This document shows, piece after piece, positions 604 through 15,532 of a stretch of DNA of 15,532 nucleotides. The stretch's first letter is position 1. Every line of letters begins with the position of its first letter. The DNA comes from Opitutales bacterium (GTDB lineage: Bacteria > Verrucomicrobiota > Verrucomicrobiia > Opitutales > JAJFLR01). A program made the translations under genes and the position numbers. A model generated the notes under the pieces. The model searched no databases. It saw nothing but the letters and a program-made list of their open reading frames with translations, and was not told the origin of the DNA. The stretch lies in assembly GCA_021772565.1 (NCBI GenBank), contig JAJFLR010000001.1, positions 1-15,532 of the forward strand, read 5' to 3'.

Positions 604-1020
604 TGAAATACACGACTTGCTAACCGACTCTGATAACAGCGACATTTATCATTCTAAACGTAATCGTAAACCGAGAATGATTACGAAATAACAGGAATTG
701 AAAACCGTGTTTTTTCTTGCTTCTTAATCAATATGCTACTGATATCTGCTACCTTACCTCTTCGACGTAGGTAGTTACAAAAATTCTATATATACCTTAA
801 ACAACTGAATTTTGGATTTTCTAATACTGAACAATATGGGGATAAAAGTTTGTCTTCACATAATGTAATACGACACTACTATTCATGACTTAGTCATTAT
901 TCTAAAACAATTACCATAAATGTTTTCGTTTATAGCAAAAATCAATAGTAACGTCGTAAAGAATATGACTGAAAACAATATGCTAAAAAAAATAGATTAC
1001 CAAATCCTGTCTTGTCAGAT

Positions 1021-1066
1021 CTCTCTACCGATTCCCAATTTATCGTGACGACATGATCGCTACCGG
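1021..1066. repeat. Solo copy of repeat module D (ctctaccgaNtcccaatttatcgtgacgacatgatcgctaccgg)
   Basis: It is near-identical to 1201-1245 (ctcgctaccgagtcccgatttattgggacgagatgatcactaccg). It is the reverse complement of 12576-12609. It has the shared 'ctaccg...cccgat/ttat...gacga...ctaccg' architecture. Confidence 0.45.
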
Positions 1067-1170
1067 AAAAATTCATCTTTAGCCAATTATCAATAAAATA
1101 GTTAATTATAGCATCTACCATAATAAATTACCGAAATAAATCAGTGTAAGAAATCAATAAACGTACTTCA

Positions 1171-1384
1171 GATAGATTGCCACACTCTGCATTCGCAGAG
1201 CTCGCTACCGAGTCCCGATTTATTGGGACGAGATGATCACTACCGAATCCGAAGGATGACACCTCAACGAGTGAAGCGAGTACCGAACGAAGTGACATCA
1301 AACATAACAGAAAACATGACAGTTCCTAGTTTTTTACTTTGTCATCGCGAGGAGCAACGCGACATCCCGACAAGTCGGGATGAC
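1171..1384. repeat. Diverged, expanded composite copy of the B-D-A repeat family (B-like head, D module, A-like tail with cccga-N4-tcggg hairpin)
   Basis: 1171-1184 'gatagattgccaca' matches the B module head 'catagattgccacatc'. 1201-1245 is module D. 1338-1353 'tttgtcatcgcgaggag' is the module A head, and it is followed by 'catcccgacaagtcgggatgac' with a perfect hairpin. The flanking 'gatgaca ... tttgtcatc' inverted pair mirrors the atgacaa/ttgtcat stem of the main array. The 69-aa ORF at 1223-1432 lies wholly inside this repeat. Confidence 0.45.
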
Positions 1385-1547
1385 TTTTTTCAGACAGAAC
1401 TTTTGCGAAATGCTAAACGAACTTTATTTTAATTTACAACCTATCGTAATGGATACAGAACATTCTATCTATTTCGGTGCCGAGTTGAAAACGACATCTA
1501 CCAATTTCTTATGGCAGATGCTATATATATAACGCAGCCTATTATTT

Positions 1548-3653
1548 CTATAAATTTTCAAGCGTCTCTATTACAATTCCTGCTGTCAAAATTTCAGGCA
1601 ATATAATTGGGTTATCCAGGTTTGGTGAATAAATAATATTAAACGGCACTGCTGACCTACCATACTTTGCTAACGCCTCAGTAATTTTTGGATCTCGATT
1701 TGTCCAATCCGCTTTTAATGTAACGATATTTTTATCTAAAAACATATCTATAACTTTTTCCGACGTAAAAACGGTTGCCTTATTTGATAGACATGTCGTG
1801 CACCAACGCGCAGTAAAATCAACATAAACAATTTTACCTTCTGCAATATTCTGATCTACTTTTTCCTGAGACCACTCTTCCCAAATTATGCCACTGTTTT
1901 CATTTTCAGGATAACCAATAAATAACGCTCCACTAAAAACCATAATACTTCCCATGACCGCCAATCGACGTATATTTAACTTACTAGCAGGAGTTGACCA
2001 GCGACCATAGATCCAGCAGGACAATCCGACTAAGACCAATGAGATAAACACTGCCAACAAACCATATTCATTTATCTGCCCCGCCAGTACCCAAATCAAT
2101 AAACCAACAGTTGCATAAATTGGAAATGCCATCAGCTGTTTAAAGGATTCCATCCACGCACCCGGCTTGGGCAGAATCTGAATGAACTTGGGAAAGACAG
2201 CAAAAAACAAATAGGGTGTCGATAATCCAAGACCAATAAATGTAAATAATACAATTGAGGTAATGGGGTCTAAAATCAAAGCTGCTCCCAAAGCTATTGA
2301 TAAAAAGGGTGCTGCACATGGTGTTGAAACTAAAGTTGCCAGAACACCTGTAAAGAAAGATGCCGATAATCCATCTCGCATAATTAAATTTCCGCCTATA
2401 CTAGTAGCCGATGTACCAACCTCAAATAATCCACTCAGGTTGAGTCCAAAAATAAAAAAGACTTGTATCAGTAAAAAAATAAATACGGGTGATTGAAGAT
2501 GATATCCCCAGCCAATTTCCTGACCTCCGGATTTTAATATTATTAATGTTCCCGCCAGCAACCAGAACGACACTAAAACACCTAGCGTGAAAATTAAACC
2601 ATGAAGCATAATTTTTGATTTCTCATCACCTCCCTGCTTTACAAAACCCATAATTTTCAATCCAAGAACAGGAAAAACACACGGCATTACATTCAGAATC
2701 AAACCACCAATATATGCAAAAATCAGAATACCTAATAATGATTTTTCAGTTGCCGTAATTTGATTGCCACTCCCTTTATCAGCAATCTTGGAAACGATAG
2801 ATTTTGGTAGTGGATCATTGGTAATTTCTGGAGAAATTTTAATTGCTACCACAGACCCATCGTCAGTCCATCCATTTTTATTGTATAAGATGCCAGGTAA
2901 AGTTTTATATTTTTTATCCTGATCAGATTTTATTAACTCCAGCAAATAACCATTATCTGATTTTATTAATTTTTGCTGGGCATTTGGATCAATAAGTGGA
3001 TATTCAGAAAAGAAATAAATTTCATTTAACTTTTCATTGGCATTTTCTAATGGTAATAGATTCAAAAAAACCTTACCTTCTTCAGCGAATGTAGAAAATT
3101 TCCAATTTGCATTTTCAACCGGCAAATTCTTGCGAGTTTGTTCAATTGAATCAGCCCACTTTCTATTTATGTTAGAATCATCATTACTAGCAGGTAATCT
3201 CAACTCAACGTCAGCTGATCCGGGAATACAGATGTTTTCACACATTAAAAAATCTACTTTCCCTTTTAGAAAATAATTTTTTCCGATCTCAAGATTATTG
3301 GGTGGTGTAATATCAATTAACAAATAAACTTCATCCTCATAACCATAATTCGTAAATTCTCCTAATTTGAAATTTTTTGGTGTAGGCCACTGAATTTGTC
3401 CGGCAGTAAATCCTTTTGGTAATTCCCAGGTAATTTTAGTTGGCAGTCCTGCATCACCCGGATTGATCCAATAGGTATGCCAATGCTCATCCATCAACAT
3501 TCTCAACGCTACGGTAAATGTTACGCCGGACAATATTGATGTCTGATCCGAAACAAGTTCGACGCTGACATGTTCCACCTTTATCGGCTTTGCTTCGATC
3601 TGGCACAGTAACGAATACAGCAATAATGTTAATATATTTAAAAATTGTTTCAC
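1548..3653 (-). CDS. DsbD-family thiol:disulfide interchange protein (protein-disulfide reductase with N-terminal periplasmic domain, polytopic membrane core and C-terminal thioredoxin domain)
   Basis: 701 aa with an N-terminal signal peptide (MKQFLNILTLLLYSLLCQIEA). There is a multi-TM central region with the two conserved membrane cysteines in 'NVMPCVFPVL' and 'STPCAAPFL' (DsbD/CcdA core). The C-terminal thioredoxin fold has 'FTARWCTTC' (CxxC). It uses a GTG start, with rc(cac) at 3651-3653. Confidence 0.85.
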   Translation of the reverse strand: MKQFLNILTLLLYSLLCQIEAKPIKVEHVSVELVSDQTSILSGVTFTVALRMLMDEHWHTYWINPGDAGLPTKITWELPKGFTAGQIQWPTPKNFKLGEFTNYGYEDEVYLLIDITPPNNLEIGKNYFLKGKVDFLMCENICIPGSADVELRLPASNDDSNINRKWADSIEQTRKNLPVENANWKFSTFAEEGKVFLNLLPLENANEKLNEIYFFSEYPLIDPNAQQKLIKSDNGYLLELIKSDQDKKYKTLPGILYNKNGWTDDGSVVAIKISPEITNDPLPKSIVSKIADKGSGNQITATEKSLLGILIFAYIGGLILNVMPCVFPVLGLKIMGFVKQGGDEKSKIMLHGLIFTLGVLVSFWLLAGTLIILKSGGQEIGWGYHLQSPVFIFLLIQVFFIFGLNLSGLFEVGTSATSIGGNLIMRDGLSASFFTGVLATLVSTPCAAPFLSIALGAALILDPITSIVLFTFIGLGLSTPYLFFAVFPKFIQILPKPGAWMESFKQLMAFPIYATVGLLIWVLAGQINEYGLLAVFISLVLVGLSCWIYGRWSTPASKLNIRRLAVMGSIMVFSGALFIGYPENENSGIIWEEWSQEKVDQNIAEGKIVYVDFTARWCTTCLSNKATVFTSEKVIDMFLDKNIVTLKADWTNRDPKITEALAKYGRSAVPFNIIYSPNLDNPIILPEILTAGIVIETLENL

Positions 3654-3770
3654 GGTCTGTTAGAGAGCTAGCACTTTAATTTATTTCTAGGTTTATTAAA
3701 ATATAAAATAGTATCAAAGAAACAAAATTGCTTTTAAAGAAAATTTTCTCATCTACTGTAATGATTAAAA

Positions 3771-5156
3771 ATGTTTAAATATTTAAAATATATTTTTCTC
3801 AGTGCCATCATTTTAGCTGGAGGATGTAAATCTACTCAAATAGTAGATGAAGAAAAGTTACCTTTTGCATTACCTGAACAGTGGGGAAATGGCAAAAATA
3901 ACGATCAAAAACAATTTTTAGATAATTGGCTAACTGATTTTAATAATCCTGCATTAGATAAACTTGTTGCTGAATCTTTAGAGAAAAATTTTGACCTTAA
4001 ATCTGCCGAAGCTAGATTAGATTCCGCCACAGCATTACTGACAATTGCAGGAGCAGACCGATTGCCTCAAATCAATGGTAGTTTAGGTGGATCGCGACAA
4101 AAAAGAACATCGACGGGTGGATTCATTATCTCAAACCCAATATCTGATAATTTTAATTTATCCGGAATTTTTACCTGGGAGCTCGATTTATGGGGACGTC
4201 TAAAAGACCGACGTGTAGCCGCATTAGCAGACTTGTTTGCTGCTAAAGAAGATTTTCAAGGTTTAAAATTATCACTGGCCGCTAACACAGCAAAATTATG
4301 GTTCGATATAATCGAAGCAGGTCAACAGCTCAAATTATCTAAAAAAACTTTAGAGAGCTTTGAATCAAACCTGAATATTCTGCAGGAACGTTTTGAGCGT
4401 GGTATTTCTGAAACTTTGGATCTAAGATTAACCCGAGCTAATGTAGCCACAGCAAAAAGTAACGTTTTCAGAAGACAGAGACTGTTAGATGAATTAGTCA
4501 GAAGTCTTGAAATATTACTTGGCCGTTACCCAAAGAATCAGTTAAATTTCAATAACGACATTCCGAAAATTAAACGAAATGTCCCGGCGGGTCTACCCAT
4601 TCAGTTATTAAAACGTCGTCCAGATATCGCTGCAGCAGAAAATCGAGTGATAGCCTCTCATAAAAGAATCAATGAATCCCGCAAAGCACTTCTACCCGGT
4701 ATTTCTTTAAATGCCTCAGGCGGTACGAGTTCCAGTAATTTATCAGATCTGCTCGATAAAAATTTCAAAGTTTGGAGTTTGGCTGGAAATGTCACACAGC
4801 CATTTTTTCAAGGGAGACGGTTAAAAGCAAATATCAAACGATCTGAAGCAGTAAAAAAAGAAGCAGTCGCAAATTTTCATAAAACTGTTTTAACCGCTTA
4901 TAGTGAAGTTGAAAATTCTTTGGCTAATGAATCATTACTTGAAAACGAAGAATCTGCATTGAAAGAAAACGTTAAAGAATCAAGAGCTGCCGAAGAATTA
5001 TCATGGGATAGATATCAATCCGGACTCACTGATATTATAACAGTACTTGAGGCACAACGTCGTTCCTTCAATGCCCAAAGCAATTTACTTCAAGTTTCGA
5101 ATTTAAGACTGCAAAACAGAGTCAATTTATATTTAGCACTCGGTGGTGGGTTTTAA
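3771..5156 (+). CDS. Efflux-transporter outer-membrane factor lipoprotein, NodT/OprM/TolC family
   Basis: 461 aa. It has a lipoprotein signal peptide with lipobox 'ILAGGC' (MFKYLKYIFLSAIILAGGCKST). Its length and two-repeat coiled/β architecture are typical of OMF proteins, and the C-terminus 'LYLALGGGF' is a characteristic NodT-family ending. It is divergent from the DsbD-like gene across a 117-bp AT-rich spacer. Confidence 0.8.
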   Translation: MFKYLKYIFLSAIILAGGCKSTQIVDEEKLPFALPEQWGNGKNNDQKQFLDNWLTDFNNPALDKLVAESLEKNFDLKSAEARLDSATALLTIAGADRLPQINGSLGGSRQKRTSTGGFIISNPISDNFNLSGIFTWELDLWGRLKDRRVAALADLFAAKEDFQGLKLSLAANTAKLWFDIIEAGQQLKLSKKTLESFESNLNILQERFERGISETLDLRLTRANVATAKSNVFRRQRLLDELVRSLEILLGRYPKNQLNFNNDIPKIKRNVPAGLPIQLLKRRPDIAAAENRVIASHKRINESRKALLPGISLNASGGTSSSNLSDLLDKNFKVWSLAGNVTQPFFQGRRLKANIKRSEAVKKEAVANFHKTVLTAYSEVENSLANESLLENEESALKENVKESRAAEELSWDRYQSGLTDIITVLEAQRRSFNAQSNLLQVSNLRLQNRVNLYLALGGGF

Positions 5157-5255
5157 ACGAAAATCCTTATATGTTTACTCACAGAATACATTGTGAATGA
5201 TTCTATATTGACTCTAGTTCACCACCCTTTATCGCTCTCTCTATATATTTAAAAA

Positions 5256-7328
5256 ATGGAAAATACCCTGCAAAAAAAAAGTAAATTAGCCGATTTTAGT
5301 CCTATCGACTTTAAGGAAGAATTAAATGAAGAACAGTATGCTGCCGTTACAGCTGAACCTGGACCGGCTTTAGTTCTGGCTGGTGCCGGATCCGGTAAAA
5401 CCAGGACACTGACTTATCGCGTAGCCTGGCTGATATCTCAAGGAGTGAGCCCGGGTGAAATTTTACTTCTGACATTTACCAATAAAGCATCTAAAGAAAT
5501 GTTGAAACGCGTTGAAGATCTGACGGGTATTGAAACCCGTTTTTTTTGGGGCGGAACGTTTCATCATATTGGGCAAAAAACAATTCGCTTTCACGGCGAA
5601 TCTATTGGCCTACAAAAAAATTATGTCATTCACGATCAAGGTGACTCTGAAGCACTACTCAGTGATGTGGTCAAATCAATCAATAGTAAATTTTTCAAAG
5701 ATAAGGCCAATCCAAAAGCACGGTTAATTCATGAAATTATCAGTTATGCTAGAAATACTAGACAAACAATTAGAGACGTTATTAATATCCGCTACTACTG
5801 GCTAGATAACCTTAAGGAGGATATAACACAATTCGCCAAATCATATCAGGAAGAAAAATTAAAAAGACAAGTCACCGACTATGACGATTTGCTGCATCAC
5901 TGGCTTGAAATTTTAAAAACTAATTCAGAAGTGGCAACCTACTATCAAAATCGATTCAAGCACATTTTAGTCGATGAATATCAAGATACAAACAAGATAC
6001 AATCTGATATCATAGATTTCTTAGGAATCAATAACCAAGTAATGGCAGTCGGTGATGACGCTCAATGTATCTATACCTGGAGAGGTGCAAGTTTTGAAAA
6101 TATAATGACATTTTCTGACCGCCACCCAAAAACAGTTATGCACAAGATTGAAACAAACTATCGCAGCACTCCAGAAATTTTGCAGTTTGCCAATAGAGTG
6201 TTAGCAACCCAACCGATCGGCACTGGTTTTAACAAAGAATTAAAATCAATTCGTCCGTCTGGATCACTGCCGTATGTTGTGCCGGTGATGGATGGAAGAA
6301 AGCAAGCTGAGTTTGTAATCAAACGTGTAGAAGGTCTGATTAATGAAGGTTACCGGATGTCAGATATTGCCATACTCTATCGAGCTCATTACCACGCGTT
6401 AGACATGCAAGTTGAACTCTCAAGATTAAGTATACCATTTGTTATCACAAGTGGTGTCAAATTTTTTGAACAAGCTCATGTTCGCGATCTTGTCGCCCAT
6501 TTAAGATTTGCCGCAAACATTAAAGATATAACGGTATTTAAAAGACTTGTTTGTCTCTTACCTAAAATTGGTGATGTCACTGCCGGGCGACTTTATAGTT
6601 TAGCAGAAAAATTCGGAGACAAAAATAACAAAACGATAATCCAGTCACTTTCTAATGAATCAGTTGTAGCAAAAGTTCCTGCAGAAGCTAAGGAAGATTG
6701 GATAGATTTAAGTTACACATTACAGGATTTAGAATTAGCGATTAACGGCCCATCAAAACCAAAGAAAGAATTATCGTTATTTGACGACGATACAGCTGAA
6801 GAAAAAGTCACAAAAATTCATACACCAGACGAAGTCGTTAAAATCGCAATCGATGGCTGGTATGGGGATTATATGCGAAATGTCTATGTTAACTGGGAAT
6901 CAAGACGAGATGACTTAGATAGCATAGTTGGCTTTGCCAGTGGTTTCGAAGACATGAATGAATTGCTTGCACAATTAATACTGCTCAATTCCGAATCGTC
7001 TGACCGCGGTGCCAATCAAAATGCAGACGCTATCCGAATGACAACTATTCATCAGGCTAAAGGGCTGGAATATCCAATAGTTTTTATAATAGGAATGGCC
7101 GAAGGATTATTCCCTCTAAAAAGAAGTATTGATAATGATGACGTCGAAGAAGAACGCAGATTATTTTACGTAGCCGTTACTCGTGCAAAAGATGAGCTCT
7201 ACATTTGTTATCCGATGATTAATACTCAAAACGGCCCATCAATAAGAATGGGACCGAGTCAGTTTCTAGAAATTCTACCGGATGACAGTTATGAAATTTT
7301 AAATGTAAGACAAACTACCAATTGGTAA
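5256..7328 (+). CDS. UvrD/PcrA/Rep-family ATP-dependent DNA helicase (superfamily 1)
   Basis: 690 aa. Walker A motif 'AGAGSGKTRTLTYRVAWLI', motif II 'VDEYQDTN', and the motifs 'NYRS' and 'TIHQAKGLEYPIVFIIG...LFYVAVTRAKDELYI' are all typical of UvrD/PcrA. Confidence 0.9.
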   Translation: MENTLQKKSKLADFSPIDFKEELNEEQYAAVTAEPGPALVLAGAGSGKTRTLTYRVAWLISQGVSPGEILLLTFTNKASKEMLKRVEDLTGIETRFFWGGTFHHIGQKTIRFHGESIGLQKNYVIHDQGDSEALLSDVVKSINSKFFKDKANPKARLIHEIISYARNTRQTIRDVINIRYYWLDNLKEDITQFAKSYQEEKLKRQVTDYDDLLHHWLEILKTNSEVATYYQNRFKHILVDEYQDTNKIQSDIIDFLGINNQVMAVGDDAQCIYTWRGASFENIMTFSDRHPKTVMHKIETNYRSTPEILQFANRVLATQPIGTGFNKELKSIRPSGSLPYVVPVMDGRKQAEFVIKRVEGLINEGYRMSDIAILYRAHYHALDMQVELSRLSIPFVITSGVKFFEQAHVRDLVAHLRFAANIKDITVFKRLVCLLPKIGDVTAGRLYSLAEKFGDKNNKTIIQSLSNESVVAKVPAEAKEDWIDLSYTLQDLELAINGPSKPKKELSLFDDDTAEEKVTKIHTPDEVVKIAIDGWYGDYMRNVYVNWESRRDDLDSIVGFASGFEDMNELLAQLILLNSESSDRGANQNADAIRMTTIHQAKGLEYPIVFIIGMAEGLFPLKRSIDNDDVEEERRLFYVAVTRAKDELYICYPMINTQNGPSIRMGPSQFLEILPDDSYEILNVRQTTNW

Positions 7329-7339
7329 ATTTTAGGTAG

Positions 7340-7361
7340 GGACGGCTGTCCCCAGCCGTCC
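7340..7361. terminator. GC-rich hairpin just after the helicase stop (ggacggct-gtcccc-agccgtcc), possible intrinsic terminator
   Basis: Perfect 8-bp stem (ggacggct / agccgtcc) with a 6-nt loop, 12 nt after the TAA at 7326-7328. It is followed by 'aaaaa' and preceded by 'ttt', so the U-tract is better for the minus strand. It is marginal as a rho-independent terminator for the helicase. Confidence 0.3.
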
Positions 7362-7419
7362 AAAAACGATTTCACAATGATGGTAATTCTACTATAAACA
7401 AATCGGAATCCATCTCTAC

Positions 7420-8066
7420 CTTGTCATCGCAAGGAGTATAAGGAGTCGACTTCGCCATAGTAACCTATGGCTACAACGGCTGGACGCGGCCATCCATCAT
7501 TTTTCTTTATTCTACATAGATTGCCACATCCTGATTTTACATCGGGATTCGCAATGACAACTACTTTGTCATCGCGAGGAGTGTAACGACGTGGCGATCC
7601 ATGATTATTCTTGTCATCGTGAGGAATGAAAATGAGCCGACTCCGCCATAGTAGCATATGGCTACGACGGCTGGACGCGGCGATCCATCACTTTTTCTTT
7701 GTTCTACATAGATTGCCACATCCCGATTTACATCGGGACTCGCAATGACAACTGTGTTTGACTTTGTCATCGCGAGGAGTGTAACGACGCGGCGATCCAT
7801 GCCTTTTCTTTATTCTACATAGATTGCCACATCCCGATTTTCATCGAGACTCGCAATGACAACCTCTTTTTCACTTTGTCATCGCGAGGAGGAAACGACG
7901 TGGCGATCCATCCATACCTTGTCATCGCGAGGAGTGAAACGACGTGGCGATCCATGCCTTTTCTTTATTCTACATAGATTGCCACATCCCGATTTACATC
8001 GGAACTCGCAATGACAACTGTGTTTGACTTTGTCATCGCGAGGAGTGTAACGACGCGGCGATCCAT
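7420..8066. repeat. Tandem composite repeat array, part 1 (modules A/B plus two A+C units), upstream flank of the GIY-YIG cassette
   Basis: Module B copies (tctacatagattgccacatcccgatttacatcgggactcgcaatgacaa) start at 7511, 7703, 7814 and 7969. Module A copies (tttgtcatcgcgaggagtg[t/a]aacgacg[c/t]ggcgatccat) lie at 7565-7602, 7763-7800, 7875-7911, 7919-7955 and 8029-8066. A+C variants with an inserted palindrome 'gccatagta(acc/gca)tatggc' lie at 7420-7496 and 7611-7688. Linkers are 'c(a/c)cttttctttRttc' (A to B) and T-rich 11-12-mers (B to A). Confidence 0.9.
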
Positions 8067-8077
8067 GATTATTAATT

Positions 8078-8374
8078 TCACAGATACCAATCTTTCGAGT
8101 AGTCTTCCCACTGATGGTTTATTTTTTCAATAAGTTTCAATTTATTTTTCCTTGATCCAGATTTAATTTGTTTCTCCCTCGATATAGCGTTATGAATATC
8201 GTGAAATACTTCAAAATATACAAGTTTTGTTAAATTATACTTTTTTGAAAAACCATCATAAGACTTATTTTTATGTTCCCACATACGTTTAATAAGACTC
8301 TTAGTAACACCAGTATATAGAGTACCATTTTTCTTATTACATATTATATAGACATAGTAATAGTGTCTTTGCAT
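8078..8374 (-). CDS. Small GIY-YIG nuclease-family protein (YhbQ/UPF0213-like, single-domain)
   Basis: 98 aa. 'YYVYIICNKKNGTLYTGVTKSLIKRMWEHK' contains the GIY-YIG motifs (YxVYII ... GTLYTGVT ... R..EH). The downstream part 'LVYFEVF...REKQIKSGSRKNKLKLI' completes the domain. The gene sits in a roughly 375-bp unique segment (8067-8440) flanked on both sides by the tandem repeat array. Confidence 0.85.
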   Translation of the reverse strand: MQRHYYYVYIICNKKNGTLYTGVTKSLIKRMWEHKNKSYDGFSKKYNLTKLVYFEVFHDIHNAISREKQIKSGSRKNKLKLIEKINHQWEDYSKDWYL

Positions 8375-8440
8375 AATTTTGGGAGAAAATTAACTTGATA
8401 ATTCCACACTTAATATTGAAATTTTTATGTCAATAAAAGT

Positions 8441-9098
8441 CTACATAGATTGCCACATCCCGATTTTACATCGGGATTCGCAATGACAATCACTTTTCCA
8501 CTTTGTCATCGCGAGGAGTGTAACGACGCGGCGATCCATCCATACCTTGTCATCGCGAGGAGTGAAACGACACGGCGATCCATCACTTTTTCTTTGTTCT
8601 ACATGGATTGCCACATCCCGATTTACATCGGGACTCGCAATGACAACCTCTTTTTCACTTTGTCATCGCGAGGAGGAAACGACGCGGCGATCCATCACTT
8701 TTCTTTATTCTACATGGATTGCCACGCCCCGATCAAACATCGGGACTCGCAATGACAATCGATTTTCCACTTTGTCATCGCGAGGAGTGAAACGACACGG
8801 CGATCCATCACTTTTTCTTTGTTCTACATAGATTGCCACATCCCGATTTACATCGAGACTCGCAATGACAATCGATTTTATTTTGTCATCGCGAGGAGTG
8901 AAACGACGCGGTGATCCATCACTTTTTCTTTGTTCTACATGGATTGCCACGCCCCGATCAAACATCGGGACTCGCAATGACAACCTCTTTTCAACTTTGT
9001 CATCGCGAGGAGTGAAACGACGCGGCGATCCATCACTTTTTCTTTATTCTACATAGATTGCCACGCCCCAATTTTACATTGGGACTCGCAATGACAAT
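8441..9098. repeat. Tandem composite repeat array, part 2 (six B copies and seven A copies), downstream flank of the GIY-YIG cassette
   Basis: B copies lie at 8441-8490, 8599-8647, 8710-8759, 8824-8872, 8935-8983 and 9049-9098. A copies lie at 8503-8540, 8548-8584, 8660-8696, 8772-8809, 8883-8920 and 8997-9034. B-to-B spacing is 111 or 114 nt for simple units. Variants of the B hairpin are cccgat-ttac-atcggg, cccgat-caaac-atcggg and cccaat-ttttac-attggg. Confidence 0.9.
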
Positions 9099-9179
9099 TT
9101 GAATTTATAAAAAATACTGACTGGTAAAATTCGTCATTACTCTTATAGGCTAAGAAATATAAAATAAAAACTATATCAG

Positions 9180-10172
9180 ATGCCAGATACATTAGAAAAT
9201 ATTAATCCGATTGTCATTGGTCCAAATAACAAGAATCGACCAGATAAACTCTCCCCTATTCAGGAAGAAATTATCGCACTTAAGAAAAAACGTAATGCTG
9301 TAATTTTGGCGCATAACTATCAAGTCGATTCTATTCAAGAAATTGCCGATTACGTTGGAGATTCATTGGGTCTCTCATATAAAGCTGCTGAAACTGAAGC
9401 TGATGTTATTTTATTTTGCGGTGTCCACTTTATGGCTGAAACGGCAAAAATTGTTAACCCAAACAAAACAGTTTTACTACCAGACTTGAATGCTGGCTGC
9501 TCTCTATCCGATTCTTGTCCGGCAGAAAAACTAGCAGACTATAAAGAAAAAAATCCTGATGTCTATGTTGTCGCTTACATCAACTGTTCAGCCGCAGTTA
9601 AAGCACTCAGCGATGTAATTTGCACTAGCGGCAATGCAATTAAAATAGTCGAAAAGATTCCAGAAGATAGAGAAATTTTATTTGTTCCCGACCAAAATCT
9701 TGGACAATGGGTTTCTAAAGTCACTGGCAGAAAAATGTTGCTCTGGCCAGGCAGTTGTTACGCGCATGTGTTATTTACTGTAAGAGCAATTGACAGAATT
9801 AAAATGGATTTCCCCAACGCACCTATTGTAGCACATCCAGAATGCATCGAAGCTGTGCGCGATATTGCCGATGAAGTTTGCAGCACTGAAAAAATGATAA
9901 GCTTTGCAATAAATCATGCTGCCAATGAAATTATCGTAGTCACAGAATCCGGCATGCTACATCGACTACGACGTGAAGTTCCAGATAAAACTTTTATTGC
10001 CGGACCAACTGAAAATTGTGCCTGCAATGATTGTCGATTTATGAAAATGAACACCATCGAAAAAACGCGTGACGCCCTACTTCATCTCGAGCCAAAAATT
10101 GAACTTGATGAAAATTTGAGAATTAATGCCTACACCCCGATCAAAAAAATGTTAGACTGGAGTAGAAGTTAA
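9180..10172 (+). CDS. nadA: Quinolinate synthase A (NAD biosynthesis)
   Basis: 330 aa. It has the NadA hallmarks 'ILAHNYQ', 'ILFCGVHFMAETAKI' and 'VVAYINCSAAVKA', and three conserved Cys (Fe-S cluster ligands) at roughly 80, 106 and 127 residue spacing. The length is typical for NadA. Confidence 0.9.
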   Translation: MPDTLENINPIVIGPNNKNRPDKLSPIQEEIIALKKKRNAVILAHNYQVDSIQEIADYVGDSLGLSYKAAETEADVILFCGVHFMAETAKIVNPNKTVLLPDLNAGCSLSDSCPAEKLADYKEKNPDVYVVAYINCSAAVKALSDVICTSGNAIKIVEKIPEDREILFVPDQNLGQWVSKVTGRKMLLWPGSCYAHVLFTVRAIDRIKMDFPNAPIVAHPECIEAVRDIADEVCSTEKMISFAINHAANEIIVVTESGMLHRLRREVPDKTFIAGPTENCACNDCRFMKMNTIEKTRDALLHLEPKIELDENLRINAYTPIKKMLDWSRS

Positions 10173-10228
10173 CCACTCACATATTTTAAAAATTAGATTA
10201 AACATAAACATCAAAAAGGAGAATACAA

Positions 10229-11515
10229 ATGTCTGAAAATTATAAATTTGAAACTAAATGCCTGCATGTTGGACACCAACCGGATCCTTCAACTAATGCT
10301 CGTGGTGTACCTGTGAACCGTACTTCCTCCTACGTCTTTAATAACACAGAACACGCAGCCAATCTGTTTGCTCTAAAAGAATTTGGCAACATCTACACAC
10401 GCTTGATGAATCCGACACATGATACATTAGAGCAACGAGTCGCTTCATTGGAAGGGGGTTGTGCCGGCTTAGCTTTTTCATCAGGTACTGCTGCCATTTA
10501 TAATTCGATAATTAATATCTGTTCTATGGGAGATGAGATTGTTTCAGCAAACAATCTTTACGGAGGAACCTATACGATGTTTGATTCGATACTTCCGCAA
10601 TTCGGTATTAAAGCAAATTTTGTCGATCCGCGAGATACATCAAGTTTTGAATCTGCGATAACTGATAAAACAAGGGCGATTTTTATCGAGACCATTGGTA
10701 ATCCAGTTTTGGAGTTTACTGATATCAGTGCCGTTTCAGAAATTGCCAAGAAACACAAAATTCCACTTATTGTTGATGCCACATTCACCACACCGTATCT
10801 ATTGAAAACTATTGAGCACGGTGCTAACATAGTTATCAATTCATTAACAAAATGGATGGGCGGTCATGGGACTGGTATTGGTGGAATCGTTATTGATGCC
10901 GGAAATTTTGATTGGACAGATTCTAAATTCAAACTCTTCAATGAACCTGATGCAAGTTATCATGGATTACGTTATGCGCATGATTTAGGAGAACTGAATC
11001 ATTTGGCATTTATATTAAGGCTTCGATTAGTACCTCTGCGTAATATCGGTTCCTGTATCTCACCGGATAACGCCTGGATGTTTCTACAGGGATTGGAAAC
11101 TTTACCTTTACGTATGCAACGCCATTGTGAAAATGCCGCCAAAGTTGCAGCTCATTTGGAAAGTCATGCACAAGTCGATTGGGTACGTTATCCCGGATTG
11201 AAAAATGATCCAACTCACGAAGTTGCGAGCAAATATTTAAAAAATGGTTTTGGCAGTATGGTTGTTTTTGGCATAAAAGGTGGATACGATGCCGGGGTAA
11301 AATTTGTCGACAATCTAAAATTATTTTCTCACTTGGCCAACGTTGGTGATGCAAAAAGTTTAGTGCTGCATCCATCGAGCACATCACATTCGCAACTGTC
11401 AGAGGAGCAACAAGCATCGAGTGGCTTAACACCTGACCTCGTTAGACTATCTGTCGGCATCGAACATATCGACGATATAATTGAGGATTTAGAATTTGGT
11501 TTTTCACTGGGTTAG
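10229..11515 (+). CDS. metY: O-acetylhomoserine aminocarboxypropyltransferase / O-acetylhomoserine sulfhydrylase (PLP-dependent, Cys/Met metabolism family)
   Basis: 428 aa. The PLP-lysine motif 'NSLTKWMGGHGT' and 'GNIYTRLMNPT' are conserved in MetY/MET17-type enzymes, and the C-terminal 'GDAKSLVLHPSSTSHSQL' is typical. There is a strong SD sequence (aaaaaggag) 8 nt upstream of the ATG. Confidence 0.9.
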   Translation: MSENYKFETKCLHVGHQPDPSTNARGVPVNRTSSYVFNNTEHAANLFALKEFGNIYTRLMNPTHDTLEQRVASLEGGCAGLAFSSGTAAIYNSIINICSMGDEIVSANNLYGGTYTMFDSILPQFGIKANFVDPRDTSSFESAITDKTRAIFIETIGNPVLEFTDISAVSEIAKKHKIPLIVDATFTTPYLLKTIEHGANIVINSLTKWMGGHGTGIGGIVIDAGNFDWTDSKFKLFNEPDASYHGLRYAHDLGELNHLAFILRLRLVPLRNIGSCISPDNAWMFLQGLETLPLRMQRHCENAAKVAAHLESHAQVDWVRYPGLKNDPTHEVASKYLKNGFGSMVVFGIKGGYDAGVKFVDNLKLFSHLANVGDAKSLVLHPSSTSHSQLSEEQQASSGLTPDLVRLSVGIEHIDDIIEDLEFGFSLG

Positions 11516-11522
11516 CTCCAGA

Positions 11523-11540
11523 GTCCCGATATATCGGGAC
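11523..11540. terminator. Perfect hairpin gtcccgat-at-atcgggac between convergent metY and PEP-CTERM genes (terminator and/or minimal repeat-family member)
   Basis: The 8-bp stem uses the same cccgat/atcggg arms as the module B hairpin of the 7420-9098 array. It lies 8 nt after the metY stop, and no clean U-tract follows. Confidence 0.35.
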
Positions 11541-11594
11541 AACATAATCACGATTAAAAGTATAACGCTTTTATGATTCAGAAATTTTTGAAAA

Positions 11595-12281
11595 CTAAGA
11601 TGTTTTTCTCAGCTTACGGTAGTATGCTAAACCTAACGCACCGAGTCCAAGTGCAGCAGCATATGCGGCTGGCTCAGGAACAGTTGTAACAACAATCGGT
11701 GTATTCAGATTTGTTTCGAGTTTACCACCAAGAATAGTCATAGTTTTTTCAGATACATTCCAATCAACATTTATGAACCCGAACTGACTGTCTCCTGTTT
11801 GAAATCCAATTGCACCAATTCGATTTGTTATCCAATCCCCAACAGCTCCACCATAATAACTATGAAATAATCGACCGTTTGTTGAAGCTGAATTGAGATT
11901 ACCATTTACAATAGATCCATAACTATAGTAATTCGCATTGGATCCAGTAGTCATAATGTTAGATCCACTTCCACCAAAAACTATAACAAGTTGGTCACCG
12001 GACAATACTCGCCCCCAAAATGTCAAATAGTCGTTAGAATCAGATGAAGCATCCAAGCTATATCCTGCTGTTTGCCCGCCAGTTCCACTACCAGTAGAAA
12101 TAAACGTAGTGCCAATTAGACTTGCAAGATTAAGATCAATAACTGCAGCTGAGGATATTACAGTCTGTCCAAGAATTCCCGATAACAGGGCCAGACTCGA
12201 CGAACTAATTGAATAACTTTGTATTCTATTTTTAATTGGGGTTAGATGTCTTGATATACTTGTCGTTAGTTTAGTACTCAT
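11595..12281 (-). CDS. PEP-CTERM sorting-domain protein (putative exosortase substrate), Gly/Ser/Thr-rich secreted protein
   Basis: The C-terminus 'TVPEPAAYAAALGLGALGLAYYRKLRKTS' is the VPEP motif plus a hydrophobic helix plus a basic cluster, which is the canonical PEP-CTERM anchor. The body is low-complexity and G/S/T/N-rich. The annotated ATG at 12281 has no SD, and the hydrophobic signal-like segment starts around residue 27, so the true start may differ. Confidence 0.75.
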   Translation of the reverse strand: MSTKLTTSISRHLTPIKNRIQSYSISSSSLALLSGILGQTVISSAAVIDLNLASLIGTTFISTGSGTGGQTAGYSLDASSDSNDYLTFWGRVLSGDQLVIVFGGSGSNIMTTGSNANYYSYGSIVNGNLNSASTNGRLFHSYYGGAVGDWITNRIGAIGFQTGDSQFGFINVDWNVSEKTMTILGGKLETNLNTPIVVTTVPEPAAYAAALGLGALGLAYYRKLRKTS

Positions 12282-12467
12282 TATTATTTATTTGGTTTTG
12301 GTATTTATGTAAAATATTCTAATGTAGTAATTATTGAAAAAATGCACCAATATTTAAATTTTAATATATTATTTATGTCAAGTCTGTTTAATATTATTTA
12401 TAGCAATTGCCAAAATGTATTCGTTTATATTGAGCATAGACTAACGTTCTGTTCGAATTAAATAGTC

Positions 12468-12625
12468 ATGGATCGCTTTGTCCAGCCGTCGTAGCCATTG
12501 GCTACTATGGCGGAGTCGGTTCACGTTGTTCCTCACGATGACAAAGTTGTGCGATTGTCATGTTTTCTCGTGATCATGTCGTCCCGATAAATCGGCACTC
12601 GGTAGCGAGACCTGCTGAGGCAGGT
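12468..12625. repeat. Inverted solo copy of array modules (rc of C, rc of A-head, rc of B-end, rc of D) followed by a short palindrome
   Basis: rc(12468-12519) = ccgactccgccatagtagccaatggctacgacggctggacaaagcgatccat, which matches the A+C unit at 7636-7688. rc(12530-12546) = ctttgtcatcgtgaggaa, which matches 7610-7626. 12553-12562 'cgattgtcat' is the rc of the B-end/linker 'atgacaatcg'. rc(12576-12609) = ctcgctaccgagtgccgatttatcgggacgacatg, which is module D (compare 1201-1245). 12610-12625 'acctgctgaggcaggt' is a perfect hairpin. Confidence 0.6.
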
Positions 12626-12834
12626 CGCGGTAATCTATCTAATTTTTGATTTGAGTTGATATTTGATTACAGTATAATCATTCAGTTTATTACTTCTGAT
12701 ATTTAAAATATACGTATGCATTTATGGCAATCGCTATAGTTTGAAAATTTATAAAAAGATAACCCGTCTGAGAATATATTTTTGATATCATACCTCAGAA
12801 GGGTTCTTTTTTTTTGATCTGAAAACATTCATAA

Positions 12835-13938
12835 TCAGATCAGTTTTGTGATACGATCGGTTAAGCCTTGCTCACCGAGAACCACGTTTAGTTTACTTGT
12901 TTTAGCTACGGTTTCCAGAACTTCCAACTCACGAAGTTTCATGAGAACAGGATTTGCCTCTATTAACTTGGCAGTGTTCATTTGAGAACGCATAGCTGCA
13001 GTTTCTTCACGACGTTTGATGACATTTGCTTCAGATGCTTTTTGAGCTTCCATAACTTTATTCATCAATTCCTTCATGTCTCCAGGAAGAATAATATCGC
13101 GAATGCCCAGCGCGATAATTTCAACACCGAAGCCTTTTGCTACTGCATCGATATTACGCTTGGTATATTTCGCCAGATCTTCTTTGTCTGCAAGTAGTCC
13201 ATCGAGTACTCGAGTTCCTACTTCAGAACGAAGAGTCAGCTGTGCTTCACGGTACAGCGCTTGAGCAATATCCATAACCTTATCAACAGACTTTTGAGGA
13301 TCAGTGATACGGTAAGTCAGGAGTGCATTCAAACGCATAGTTACTTTATCCTGGGTCATAATTTCCTGACCGGAAATATCCATAATCTGCTCACGTTGAT
13401 CAACCAAGTAAATTTTTACTTTGGCTGCATCTTTCCAAAATGCATTTTTTCCGGAAGGAAGAATTTCGGTGAATTCACCATTGACGTATAGAACGCCAAC
13501 TTTTCCATCAGGAATATCAGTAATATTTAGAAAGACATTCGCAGAAACATTTTTTAGAATAGTTTCCAGGTCTTGCCGTTTTAGTTGTAGTGCATCAGTT
13601 TTAATAACTGTGACATCAACCTTACGGAATTTTGTCCATAGACCATACAGGCCAGGACCCACGATTTTTTCGAAACGATTGTCCACCCAGACAAGAGCAC
13701 GTTCATTATCCTTTAGGTCAATGAACTTTGCTTTGTCGTTCAACAATACGCTACGAGCGAGCTGATCGATTTCTACAGAATCGATCCAGGGACTTCGCTG
13801 GCTAACAACTTCCACTTTAACTTTACTGCGGAAGCTGAAGAACCAACGCCATCCTTCGCTTACAAGATCGATCAATTTACCATTCTTGTAAACCAGCCCG
13901 AACTCATCATATTTAATATATTTTCGGAATAGGATCAT
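12835..13938 (-). CDS. SPFH/band-7 domain protein (stomatin/prohibitin/HflC-like), apparently without N-terminal membrane anchor
   Basis: 367 aa. The central region 'QDKVTMRLNALLTYRITDPQKSVDKV...REAQLTLRSEVGTRVLDGLLADKEDL...GVEIIALGIRDIILPGDMKELMNKVMEAQKASEA' matches the SPFH core plus a C-terminal coiled-coil. There is a strong SD sequence (aaggag) upstream. No hydrophobic TM segment is present in the first 60 residues. Confidence 0.8.
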   Translation of the reverse strand: MILFRKYIKYDEFGLVYKNGKLIDLVSEGWRWFFSFRSKVKVEVVSQRSPWIDSVEIDQLARSVLLNDKAKFIDLKDNERALVWVDNRFEKIVGPGLYGLWTKFRKVDVTVIKTDALQLKRQDLETILKNVSANVFLNITDIPDGKVGVLYVNGEFTEILPSGKNAFWKDAAKVKIYLVDQREQIMDISGQEIMTQDKVTMRLNALLTYRITDPQKSVDKVMDIAQALYREAQLTLRSEVGTRVLDGLLADKEDLAKYTKRNIDAVAKGFGVEIIALGIRDIILPGDMKELMNKVMEAQKASEANVIKRREETAAMRSQMNTAKLIEANPVLMKLRELEVLETVAKTSKLNVVLGEQGLTDRITKLI

Positions 13939-14306
13939 TTTTTCTCCTTGGTTTTAGTTTATGTTGTAGTTCACACCTCATTATTAAGATGCGAAAGTAT
14001 TAAAAGAGTGATCCTCGGGAAGCATTCGAGACCTTGATCCCATCAATATTACGGAATCATTTTTTAGAAAAGTATCAGCTTTGGTTTTTGAAAGGATAGA
14101 AATACAAAATTGTCTAAACAGTTTTTGTTTTCAATCGAACCTATTACGATTTCAATAATCGAATTAGTAATAGCAATCAATGCGCAAGCTTCTACCAAAC
14201 GGTATCCAAATGATTCTGGTAAGTTTGATGTTGTAATCGATATAAAATCGATTGACAGATCTCAGTAACGTTAACTTCCCTTGGATCGTATTTGAGCCTG
14301 CAAAGC

Positions 14307-14331
14307 AGGCAGTTAAGGGATTTGAACCCTC
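14307..14331 (-). other. Isolated tRNA 3' fragment (T-arm plus acceptor 3' strand, GAGGG-TTCAAAT-CCCTT-AACTGCC-T) with no matching 5' half
   Basis: The minus-strand sense sequence contains a canonical T-loop TTCAAAT with a 5-bp stem and a 7-nt acceptor strand. No complementary 5' acceptor (GGCAGTT) is found upstream. It is followed by the hairpin gcctgctttgcaggc. Confidence 0.4.
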
Positions 14332-14352
14332 GGTTTTCCACTTTTACCTTAG

Positions 14353-14424
14353 TCGGATACACGGGATTCGAACCCGCCACAGCTTGATTCTAAGTCAAGT
14401 GCTCTACCACTGAGCTAATATCGC
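14353..14424 (-). tRNA. tRNA-like gene, anticodon UAG, class-I (short variable arm). Acceptor stem has 2 terminal mismatches, so it is a possible pseudogene or atypical tRNA
   Basis: Minus-strand sense: GCGATAT-TA-GCTC-AGTGGTA-GAGC-A-CTTGA-CTTAGAA-TCAAG-CTGTG-GCGGG-TTCGAAT-CCCGT-GTATCCG-A. The D-, anticodon- and T-arms are canonical (T-loop TTCGAAT, U33, A37). In the acceptor stem, pairs 3-7 are fine but 1-72 is G/G and 2-71 is C/C. Confidence 0.5.
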
Positions 14425-14821
14425 GTGTTTTCACGATGCTTTCGATGCCATTGACAGAATACAATAACATAACGGAATACTCAAAACGAATTTCCGACAT
14501 ATTGCACTGTTGGACGGCAACATGAAATTGTACTCCGACCCTTACCGTCACATATTACCCGGATTATGCATTAGGTTAGATGTTTAGTTTGTGAAATTAA
14601 TGACAAAGGAGCGTATTCTAATACGTGACTGCAGTCCTTGATTGAAGCACACTGAAAATGTAGCCAAAACGTTTTTCAAAAATTTTAATTTTTGTTTTCT
14701 ATATACTATTAGAAAACATTCTGAATAATGAACAATTACAGAATAATTTTGAAAAACGTGGTGCAGAATTCGGGTTGATAACGTGGTGTGCCAACCCTAA
14801 CACTACCGGAGCAAAAATATT

Positions 14822-14891
14822 TGGAATGGAAGGATTCGAACCTGGGATTAAAGATTAACAATCTCCTGTGTTACCACTACACCATCTTGCT
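14822..14891 (-). pseudogene. tRNA-Asn(GUU)-like gene with 3' end (T-stem 3' strand plus acceptor) replaced by unrelated sequence ending CCA
   Basis: Minus-strand sense: AGCAAGA-TG-GTGT-AGTGGTA-ACAC-A-GGAGA-TTGTTAA-TCTTT-AATC-CCAGG-TTCGAAT-CCTTCCATTCCA. The D-arm and anticodon arm (anticodon GUU) are good. T-stem 5' CCAGG has no partner (CCTTC), and the 3' tail does not pair with the 5' acceptor AGCAAGA. Confidence 0.45.
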
Positions 14892-14901
14892 AAAATAAAT
14901 T

Positions 14902-14975
14902 TAACCGAGGAGGGATTCGAACCCCCATCAAACTGTTTCTAAAACAGTCGCCTTTATCCGTTGGGCTACTCGGCT
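14902..14975 (-). tRNA. tRNA, anticodon UAG, class-I fold (5-nt variable loop), identity uncertain (nominally Leu by anticodon)
   Basis: Minus-strand sense: AGCCGAG-TA-GCCC-AACGGATAA-AGGC-G-ACTGT-TTTAGAA-ACAGT-TTGAT-GGGGG-TTCGAAT-CCCTC-CTCGGTT-A. All four stems pair (7/7 acceptor including one G·U, 5/5 anticodon stem, 5/5 T-stem including one G·U). The T-loop is TTCGAAT, with U33 and A37. It is 74 nt and CCA is not encoded. Confidence 0.65.
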
Positions 14976-15121
14976 GAAAATTGGTTGGCTAGCGACAATT
15001 AGAACTCCCTATTAACGACAATTAAAAATCCCTACCATTGTTTTGTCAAAAAGCCTGGAGCTTTTTGGCGGAACGTAATCAGAGTTAAGGGATGATATCT
15101 CATCAACAATACCGAAAAATT

Positions 15122-15532
15122 ATGAAGCATTATAATATAACTGGAAAAATCAGCACTACTGCTGTTAAAGTAGGTGTAGATATTAAAACAGCTCGAAAGT
15201 ATATTGGAGGGGCAAAGTCACCAATTGAGCTTAAGCCGCCGCGTGATTGGGTAACCCGTTCTAATCCATTCGATGGTGTTTGGCACAAGGTGCAAAGTTG
15301 GCTTGAGGTGGATCCTCAATTACAATCGACCAGTATCTTTGAGCAATTGTCTCGAGAGTTTCCAGGTCGTTTTGAGTCGGGGCAACTACGCAGTTTGCAG
15401 CGAAAGATAAAAAGATGGCGAATCGATAATGGCGTGATGCCGGCCAAGCCAATTTATTTTGAGCAGATACATCTGCCGGGTCGGCTATTGGAGTTGGATT
15501 GGTTTAGTCCAAAGAGTTTTGAGGTGAGCATT
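15122..15532 (+). mobile_element. IS21-family transposase IstA-like N-terminus (partial, runs off the 3' window edge; absent from the ORF track because there is no in-window stop)
   Basis: The reading frame from ATG 15122 is open to the window end: MKHYNITGKISTTAVKVGVDIKTARKYI...KPIYFEQIHLPGRLLELDWFSPKSFEV. It has an N-terminal HTH resembling IstA 'IAxxLGVSRNTVRKYL'. The segment 'YFEQIHLPGRLLELDW' fits the IstA 'RFETxPGxQxQVDWG' motif that precedes the DDE core. Confidence 0.55.

Follow-up and report, generated by a model that had tools for sequence, protein, structure and literature searches.

Introduction

SsnA of Neisseria meningitidis (NMV_0044) is a 94-aa single-domain GIY-YIG nuclease (CDD cd10448). 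Its target is the hairpin repeat NTS (CGTCATTCCCGCGMAVGCGGGAATCYRG), which extends the older dRS3 repeat; SsnA binds NTS only in single-stranded form, and the cut falls a few nucleotides upstream of it (Chenal et al. 2025, Nat Commun 16:2388, PMC11893778). The enzyme is inactive on duplex DNA, on RNA and on the opposite strand, with RNA being neither bound nor cut, and cleavage confined to single-stranded DNA was demonstrated for four homologues (PMC11893778). Here, we analyze a 15,532-nt stretch of DNA from an Opitutales bacterium (contig JAJFLR010000001.1, positions 1 to 15,532; hereafter, the window), in which a small GIY-YIG nuclease gene, ssn, lies within an array of hairpin repeats, and we compare this locus with the Ssn system.

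In Neisseria, the three bases before the palindrome of the repeat govern cutting and the C after it governs binding (PMC11893778). Across phyla, ssn homologues are flanked by "Ssn-related motifs" (SRMs), at least one being present in 71% of the cases and both sides being occupied in 42% (PMC11893778). The repeats form clusters, and the authors likened the repeat-gene-repeat architecture that they described to an insertion sequence (IS) and compared it with repetitive extragenic palindromic (REP) sequences, bacterial interspersed mosaic elements (BIMEs) and REP-associated tyrosine transposases (RAYTs) (PMC11893778). The Neisseria system lowers transformation by NTS-containing DNA (PMC11893778). 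A 2006 phylogenomics paper on GIY-YIG domains grouped the prokaryotic standalone ones as Slx1-like, and a term search of that paper turned up no mention of repeats associated with them. Our literature searches returned only unrelated primer matches for the core sequence of the window repeats and nothing relevant for GIY-YIG paired with REP sequences or MITEs (miniature inverted-repeat transposable elements).

The locus belongs to the system published in 2025 and is not a new kind of element. The original prediction for this DNA had called the architecture undescribed, which was wrong, as the Ssn/SRM (NTS) system has the same architecture and the same clusters (PMC11893778). New here are a class of repeats that the published search pattern overlooks, evidence for DNA mini-hairpins, and sharp-ended paralogous units in a related genome.

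Results

The ssn gene encodes an Ssn-family homologue

The 98-aa open reading frame (ORF) within the array matches PF01541 over residues 5 to 79 (E 4.5e-15), and a Pfam scan of the protein found no other family. A tblastn search against Neisseria gonorrhoeae chromosomes gave E 7e-18, well below the E < 1e-10 used as tblastn criterion in the Ssn paper, and BLASTP against the 94-aa gonococcal SsnA orthologue gave 44% identity over 84 residues without gaps (E 1e-27), both values referring to the gonococcal orthologue and not to N. meningitidis SsnA itself. The gonococcal ORF has NTS copies around it and carries Y6, Y17, and E64, the residues mutated in the published work (PMC11893778). In the ungapped alignment, these residues match Y9, Y20, and E67 of the window protein, with the same spacing, and all three are invariant in 20 homologues. 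The 98-aa ORF is, as judged by homology, an intact Ssn-family member, with a predicted single-domain GIY-YIG nuclease as its product. The PDB yielded distant UPF0213 structures only and no Ssn structure, and PADLOC protein models returned 0 families for the window protein at E up to 0.01.

The gonococcal sequences came from PLSDB records NZ_CP119140.1 and NZ_CP119142.1, which are 2.17-Mb N. gonorrhoeae chromosomes catalogued as plasmids; several multi-megabase Sinorhizobium, Aeromonas, and Shinella replicons are likewise catalogued there as plasmids. Gene models of three other ssn homologues (P0024, P0064, and P0081) carry N- or C-terminal extensions (e.g., DCFVAALLAMT and LLRRCAPRND) that are translated flanking repeats, so the repeats contaminate protein predictions.

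The gene lies in an array of 23 oriented hairpin modules

The array lies in a noncoding block of 1.85 kb between a UvrD-type helicase gene (5256-7328, + strand) and nadA (9180-10172, + strand), in which ssn (8078-8374, - strand) is the only substantial ORF. A frame search of the window located 23 copies of one hairpin module in 7423-9095, 13 on the + strand (termed A) and 10 on the - strand (termed B), and a repeat search of the window counted 12 to 13 copies of A and 10 of B. The 11-mer GTCATYGCGAG, with one mismatch allowed, occurs 25 times in the window versus 0.33 expected, a number reached in 0 of 200 shuffles, and 23 of the 25 matches fall in 7423-9095. Over 7674-9098, Tandem Repeats Finder (TRF) revealed a basic period of 111 to 114 nt and, at a higher order, periods of 155 and 225 nt. 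The array is real, nonrandom, and far beyond chance.

Evaluation of the modules revealed a shared frame when B is read as its reverse complement: GTC, then ATYGC as the first 5-nt stem arm, GAG, a core that varies, GNR, GCRAT as the second stem arm, and C. A and B are one element in opposite orientations, in two sequence classes whose stem arms (ATCGC/GCGAT in A and ATTGC/GCAAT in B) differ by compensatory changes. GTC starts all 23 modules, and GTC-ATYGC...GCRAT-C is complete in 22 of them, the exception being the first module (7423-7495), with CCAT where the others have GCRAT. The modules follow one another as successive head-out pairs, A then B, with tail-to-tail gaps of 22 to 23 nt and head-to-head gaps of 9 to 17 nt. 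One such pair holds the gene: the unique 374-bp stretch with ssn (8067-8440) stands where the other A/B pairs have their 22- to 23-nt tail-to-tail spacer, so that ssn sits between one A tail (8032-8064, + strand) and one B tail (8447-8487, - strand), with the heads pointing outwards.

Much of the original prediction was borne out by these results. The array was recovered where it had been placed, by TRF, the repeat search, and the 11-mer count, and the GIY-YIG gene does lie in a unique insert at a single A/B junction. The inverted repeat bridging B ends and A starts is also real, and it exists because the A and B heads of the same element face each other. Other statements had to be amended. 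The array had been described as about 12 units of 112 nt; the period agrees, and the succession is not strict, as the 10 A/B pairs are accompanied by three additional copies of A (7568, 7878, and 8505), and two long A copies (7423 and 7613) have an extra hairpin of ∼40 nt. The range given, 7420-9098, holds all 23 modules, and related modules also occur beyond it, at ∼1168-1388 and 12470-12640. At least 24 complete-frame modules are found in the 15.5-kb contig, all intergenic and spread over three intergenic regions.

As a side observation, two Logan short-read contigs from the same organism (L011 and L012; SRR15505518/19) stop at the last module, 170 nt short of nadA, which indicates that the array breaks short-read assemblies. 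The UvrD-like helicase of the host is 56 to 60% identical to Opitutae/Opitutales proteins, the match on which the Verrucomicrobiota-like affiliation of the host is based here.

Many module cores are predicted DNA mini-hairpins

Folded as DNA, module B gave a clear hairpin (z -2.9 to -5.3), and the CCCGAT-N4/5-ATCGGG hairpin noted in the original prediction is real. We then analyzed the base pairs of larger module sets. At the Y/R position of the closing stem, 211 modules have T-A, 13 have C-G, and one has A-A, with T-G and C-A in none. Among 155 distinct modules, 37% have a two-pair stem with a GNA triloop in the core, versus 9% of shuffled cores. In the 31 distinct 32-nt modules, one core pair is GC in 17, AT in 9, and CG in 4, and the other is CG in 17, TA in 7, TG in 3, and GC in 1. 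Their covariation reached 0.266, compared to 0.098 in shuffles (0 of 500 reached the observed value) and 0.009 to 0.123 in slid controls; since the closing stem was a selection criterion for this alignment, only the core pairs count as independent evidence. The pairs flanking the two core pairs are mostly G.A/A.G. Many cores are thus modeled as GNA-triloop DNA mini-hairpins with compensatory changes. In DNA, mini-hairpins of the d(GCGNAGC) type have unusual stability, as do tandem sheared G.A pairs, and Hirao, Yoshizawa, and co-workers reportedly found GNA-triloop mini-hairpins to be exceptionally stable in DNA in the 1990s. On account of this stability, the modules fit a single-stranded-DNA ligand better than an RNA.

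The gene-repeat association is general

Thousands of homologues are ∼55 to 68% identical to the window protein. The three homologues that were inspected first, from a relative of the window host, from Brachyspira aalborgi, and from a gammaproteobacterium, are all bracketed by modules with a shared head and tail and different cores. In the relative, a helicase homologue (P0128) lies on the same 2.29-Mb contig as P0004, which points to a lineage related to the window's host. We then scanned one genome per species and obtained 80 homologous loci, from Proteobacteria, groups of the candidate phyla radiation, Cyanobacteria, Chloroflexi, Bacteroidota, Planctomycetota, Campylobacterota, and others. 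The 10-nt core GTCATYGCRA was found at ≤400 nt from the gene in 54 of the 80 loci, covering many phyla, with a chance expectation of ∼0.006 core hits per locus as estimated from the degeneracy of the motif, and 200 of the 247 core hits in these loci were near the gene (≤400 nt). The commonest layout (28/54) was head-out as in the window: upstream of the gene the head lies on the sense strand, and downstream of it on the antisense strand. The gene-repeat association is general. The view that nuclease and repeats belong together, taken in the original prediction, is supported, and ssn is, on this comparative evidence, the putative cognate enzyme of the repeats that surround it. A Rhizobium plasmid homologue (43.7% identity), which is kept in all close relatives, lacks canonical repeats.

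Arrays similar to that of the window lie beside ssn in an Anaerolineae metagenome-assembled genome (MAG), on a Planktothrix plasmid, and in Brachyspira. In the first two, arrays of head-out pairs flank ssn, often with tandem truncated heads, and the window architecture is therefore recurrent and not unique. The repeat of the Planktothrix plasmid is an intermediate form, GTCATTCTGAGTGAAACGAAGAATC.

Two further observations concern these arrays. On the Planktothrix agardhii plasmid (NZ_LR882964.1; L095), the ssn homologue at 1992-2276 (57% identity) and its repeat arrays are bordered by an MmeI-type restriction-modification gene on one side and by drmA, a DISARM helicase gene, on the other, a defense-island context. 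Tandem truncated heads, GTCATTGCGAG followed by ∼10 nt with a period of 20 to 24 nt and ending in one complete module, occur in several phyla (L026, 25-95 and 701-771; L003, 4330-4500; L062, 2440-2520; L095, 1690-1750 and 2320-2400) and were not seen in the window array. They suggest recurrent slippage or insertion at a fixed point of the hairpin.

Duplicated blocks and paralogous units

The higher-order periods of 155 and 225 nt in the window array have 91 to 92% matches, and a 109-nt block is 98% identical within the array, both of which point to segmental duplication. In B. aalborgi strains, module-sized insertions or deletions occur at one locus. A related Verrucomicrobiota genome (contig L001) contains two inverted ssn units, at 3882-4351 and 7548-8017, located 3.6 kb apart. 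The two units are ∼99% identical over ∼465 bp, the identity ends ∼5 nt outside both GTC heads, and the only strong difference between the copies is in the 8-nt inner loop of one flanking repeat. The ends of the units, a few nucleotides 5' of each head, correspond roughly to the cut position reported in Neisseria relative to the repeat. This pattern is the expected look of a discrete duplicating unit and hints at mobility. The L001 copies show no visible target-site duplication. An IS3-type insertion disrupts the second ssn copy of the sister contig L002; the difference between L001 and L002 was considered as an empty site and rejected, since it comes from this unrelated IS. We found no empty site or whole-unit insertion polymorphism, the comparison of Rhizobium plasmids being uninformative in this respect.

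Other features of the window

The coordinates of the gene, of the modules, and of the related repeats are collected in Table 1.

Table 1. Modules of the ssn array and related features of the window
Coordinates	Strand	Feature	Basis
7423-7495	+	Long A variant, 73 nt, extra internal hairpin GCCATAG..CTATGGC	Frame search, sequence read, repeat family
7518-7558	-	B type, core CCTGAT..ATCGGG, one mismatch from CCCGAT	Motif scan, frame search
7568-7600	+	A type, 33 nt, extra copy without B partner	Motif scan, frame search
7613-7686	+	Long A variant, 74 nt	Frame search; DNA fold z -1.6
7710-7749	-	B type	Motif scan, frame search
7766-7798	+	A type	Motif scan, frame search
7821-7860	-	B type	Motif scan, frame search
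7878-7909	+	A type, 32 nt, extra copy	Motif scan, frame search
7921-7953	+	A type	Motif scan, frame search
7976-8015	-	B type	Motif scan, frame search
8032-8064	+	A type, at ssn 3' end, head away from gene	Motif scan, frame search
8067-8440		Unique 374-bp stretch with ssn and its upstream region	Sequence read, frame search
8078-8374	-	ssn, predicted 98-aa single-domain GIY-YIG nuclease, stop codon included	ORF; PF01541
8447-8487	-	B type, at ssn 5' side, head away from gene	Scans; DNA fold z -5.3
8505-8537	+	A type, extra copy	Motif scan, frame search
8549-8581	+	A type	Motif scan, frame search
8605-8644	-	B type	Motif scan, frame search
8662-8693	+	A type, 32 nt	Motif scan, frame search
8716-8756	-	B type, core variant CCCCGATCAAACATCGGGA	Motif scan, frame search
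8774-8806	+	A type	Motif scan, frame search
8830-8869	-	B type	Scans; DNA fold z -2.9
8885-8917	+	A type	Motif scan, frame search
8941-8981	-	B type	Motif scan, frame search
8999-9031	+	A type	Motif scan, frame search
9055-9095	-	B type, final module of the array, 85 nt before nadA	Motif scan, frame search
12470-12542	-	Solo long A-type module, other intergenic region	Sequence read, frame search
12553-12640	+	SRM-like, GTCAT head, then second small hairpin repeat TACCGAG...GACGACATG (- strand reading)	Sequence read, motif scan
1168-1262	-	SRM-like, tail GATAGATTGCC, hairpin CTCTGC..GCAGAG, same second repeat interrupting same position	Sequence read, motif scan
1341-1388	+	Canonical head GTCATCGCGAG, divergent 3' part, hairpin ATCCCGAC..GTCGGGAT	Motif scan, sequence read

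A second small repeat, composed of TACCGAG, a short hairpin, and GGGACGA(C/G)AT, is found in the window at 1026-1055 (+), 1206-1235 (+), and 12575-12604 (-) and in L001 at 3915-3944 and 7955-7984. Two of the window copies interrupt SRM-like modules, separating the GTCAT head from GCGAG at exactly that point; the L001 copies take up the mirror position, within the tail of the SRM that lies upstream of each ssn copy. Possible readings of the small repeat are a nested mini-insertion and a three-way-junction variant of the hairpin repeat. The intergenic region at 600-1548 (950 bp) is a mosaic of degenerate hairpin modules from at least two repeat families, and it has no ORF with family support. 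Finally, the region 14353-14975 (- strand) contains two tRNAs of only 70 and 74 nt, which ARAGORN assigns to Leu (anticodon TAG) and which score 51.8 and 60.2 bits with Rfam, and a weak third tRNA-like match lies at 14829-14886 (31.6 bits). A tRNA-Leu with a short variable arm would be unusual in bacteria.

Discussion

A putative Ssn nuclease with its proposed cognate repeats

We propose that the locus is very probably an Ssn/SRM locus, composed of a 98-aa Ssn nuclease and 23 cognate SRM hairpins. Each SRM would be an oriented DNA hairpin made up of the GTC head, the ATYGC/GCRAT closing stem, a distal core that varies, and a C that directly follows the stem, and one head-out pair would enclose the gene (SRM-ssn-SRM). 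If the window enzyme acts like its Neisseria counterpart, it would bind an SRM only when the SRM strand is single stranded and folded, nick it a few nucleotides 5' of the GTC head, and spare double-stranded DNA, RNA, and the complementary strand. Many cuts on either strand would then be expected in single-stranded copies of the locus, such as incoming transforming DNA or intermediates of replication and repair; given the 13 sites of one strand and the 10 of the other, any such copy would be fragmented, which would limit recombination at the locus. The only role tested for Ssn is the one in Neisseria, where it limits how incoming DNA recombines (PMC11893778). The array itself probably grew in two ways, by segmental tandem duplication and by some Ssn-dependent spread of repeats resembling that of REP/RAYT systems.

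Several results weigh against this assignment. Module A alone is not predicted to be stable by nearest-neighbor DNA rules (z +0.8 to +1.2), which amends the original prediction on this point. The published SRM string, HGTCWYN(0-2)YYVSBRHN(0-5)WNVSBRGN(0-2)RNCYNB, gave 9 matches in a 3.25-kb gonococcal locus and 0 in the window, and it was found near the gene in only 5 of the 80 loci, versus 54 for the GTCATYGCRA core. The string misses the window modules because it requires a pyrimidine run where they have GCGAG. SRM membership is consequently argued from layout and association and not from the authors' operational definition; as far as can be judged from the sequences, the window repeats fit the SRM concept but not the search pattern. 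Since the pattern misses the repeat class found with most close homologues of the window protein, the published counts of repeats and of associations are probably underestimates.

Weighing the alternatives

The original prediction had offered two explanations, structured small-RNA or protein-binding units and a MITE-like element with a homing-type passenger gene. Structured protein-binding sites are supported, by analogy with Neisseria SsnA. A function at the RNA level, in which the array would be transcribed and its units would serve as structured small RNAs, processing sites, or terminators, appears very improbable. The array does lie between two + strand genes (uvrD-like and nadA), so that read-through transcription is possible, and the B modules fold well, but Rfam found no match in the array, either at gathering thresholds or at E up to 5 (elsewhere it found tRNAs and one chance snoRNA match), and neither promoter-like sites (6 versus 5.1 expected) nor terminator-like sites (2 versus 1.4) are enriched. 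The modules are present on both strands, many of their cores are XY-GNA-Y'X' mini-hairpins between tandem G.A mismatches, as suits DNA, and Neisseria SsnA does not interact with RNA (PMC11893778). Even less credible is a chance juxtaposition, in which an unrelated array would by accident have received a free-standing gene for a GIY-YIG homing endonuclease. A weak NCBIfam match to group I intron endonucleases (21.4 bits, below the cut-off of 56) is in line with such an origin, but the 98-aa protein lacks the DNA-binding extension of I-TevI-type enzymes, the association of gene and repeat recurs in 54 of 80 loci across phyla, and it had already been published (PMC11893778). Together with the head-out layout and the stem pairing, this core association effectively refutes chance. 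The original prediction would have fallen had the unit been a known repeat family with GIY-YIG genes never otherwise associated with it; the family is indeed known, but precisely through its link to a GIY-YIG gene.

A third alternative overlaps with the Ssn/SRM assignment and does not exclude it. SRM-ssn-SRM might be an active, autonomous IS-like transposon, whose ∼100-nt A/B pairs would be internally deleted, nonautonomous MITE- or REPIN-like copies, mobilized in trans by Ssn and inserted side by side, an idea also raised by the Ssn authors (PMC11893778). The gene fills the spacer of exactly one A/B pair, the two L001 units are ∼99% identical with sharp bounds ∼5 nt outside the GTC heads, the protein is 51 to 68% identical across many phyla, which suggests horizontal spread, and B. 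aalborgi strains vary at one locus by module-sized insertions or deletions. However, the 155- and 225-nt periods point to the duplication of blocks instead of one-by-one insertion, and only cleavage has been shown for Ssn. To our knowledge, no strand-transfer or joining activity exists for the GIY-YIG domain. The homologue is nearly absent from phages, whose genomes gave weak homologues only, and among plasmid records it is mostly on large replicons. Given that neither an empty site nor a target-site duplication was found in the genomes compared, we regard active transposition as unlikely. Equally tentative is the broader proposal of an autonomous GIY-YIG-driven mobile element, analogous to REP/RAYT, with the A/B pairs as miniature nonautonomous copies and with a distinct DNA-only structure, outside the published definition, as the predominant repeat class across phyla; this structure would combine a stem of ATTGC, G.A mismatches in tandem, and a mini-hairpin with a GNA triloop. 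In line with this proposal, the near-identical L001 units end ∼5 nt outside their heads, roughly at the reported cut position of Ssn. A MITE-like or selfish origin is possible, while the homing-passenger part of the original idea does not stand, the gene being the probable cognate enzyme in view of the 54 of 80 loci.

With the Ssn/SRM assignment, such blocks should be labeled Ssn/SRM loci in annotations and not CRISPR-like arrays (clustered regularly interspaced short palindromic repeats), MITEs, or strings of spurious small ORFs. Each repeat class may have its own cleavage specificity, which is relevant to single-stranded-DNA tools. The regular two-class array and the sharp-ended paralogous units provide concrete substrates for asking whether Ssn elements move.

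Comparison with known systems

The locus resembles a CRISPR array in its short, regularly spaced, intergenic repeats. It differs in that the "spacers" are themselves conserved repeats and the orientation alternates; with both alternating units conserved and no cas domains found by a Pfam scan of eight window ORFs, a CRISPR array was rejected, in agreement with the original prediction. With I-TevI-type homing endonucleases, the window protein shares the GIY-YIG catalytic domain and the small free-standing gene. It lacks, however, their C-terminal DNA-binding domain and is not in an intron or phage, and its target, if like that of the Neisseria enzyme, would be a repeated single-stranded hairpin instead of a unique double-stranded site. 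With its small gene between terminal inverted repeats and, close by, short pairs of these ends that lack a gene, the locus is reminiscent of IS elements and their MITEs, although it has no recognized transposase domain, the L001 copies have no visible target-site duplication, and mobility is a hypothesis. The likeness to REP/BIME/REPIN-RAYT systems (related to IS200/IS605) extends further: short oriented hairpin repeats recognized as single-stranded DNA, inverted pairs in arrays, a cognate enzyme gene flanked by inverted repeats, and a proposed domesticated or selfish origin. In contrast to RAYTs, the window enzyme is a GIY-YIG nuclease and not an HUH/Y1 transposase (no Y1 transposase domain was found in the eight window ORFs scanned against Pfam), the head is (T)GTC-AT followed directly by the stem and not GTAG or CGTC, and Ssn is known for cleavage, not for transposition or joining.

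The closest system is Ssn/NTS. The differences are that the window protein is only 44% identical to the Neisseria orthologue, that the host is an uncultured Verrucomicrobiota-like bacterium, and that the 23 copies form a very regular array, with two alternating classes of repeats. The window repeats have an ATYGC/GCRAT stem, a conserved GAG/GNR internal loop, and a variable distal hairpin, with lengths of 32 to 74 nt, whereas NTS is a simple ATTCCCGCG hairpin of 28 nt. The likenesses cover the enzyme, the repeat, and the layout. Both proteins (98 aa in the window, ∼94 aa in Neisseria) are single-domain GIY-YIG proteins with the same Tyr/Tyr/Glu spacing, and in both cases the gene is flanked head-out by oriented hairpins made of GTC, a palindrome (ATT...AAT), and C. 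In the window, this palindrome runs from ATT/ATC to AAT/GAT before the C, to be compared with CGTCATTCCCGCG...CGCGGGAATC in NTS. The repeats of both systems are intergenic and clustered, and the family is spread over many phyla.

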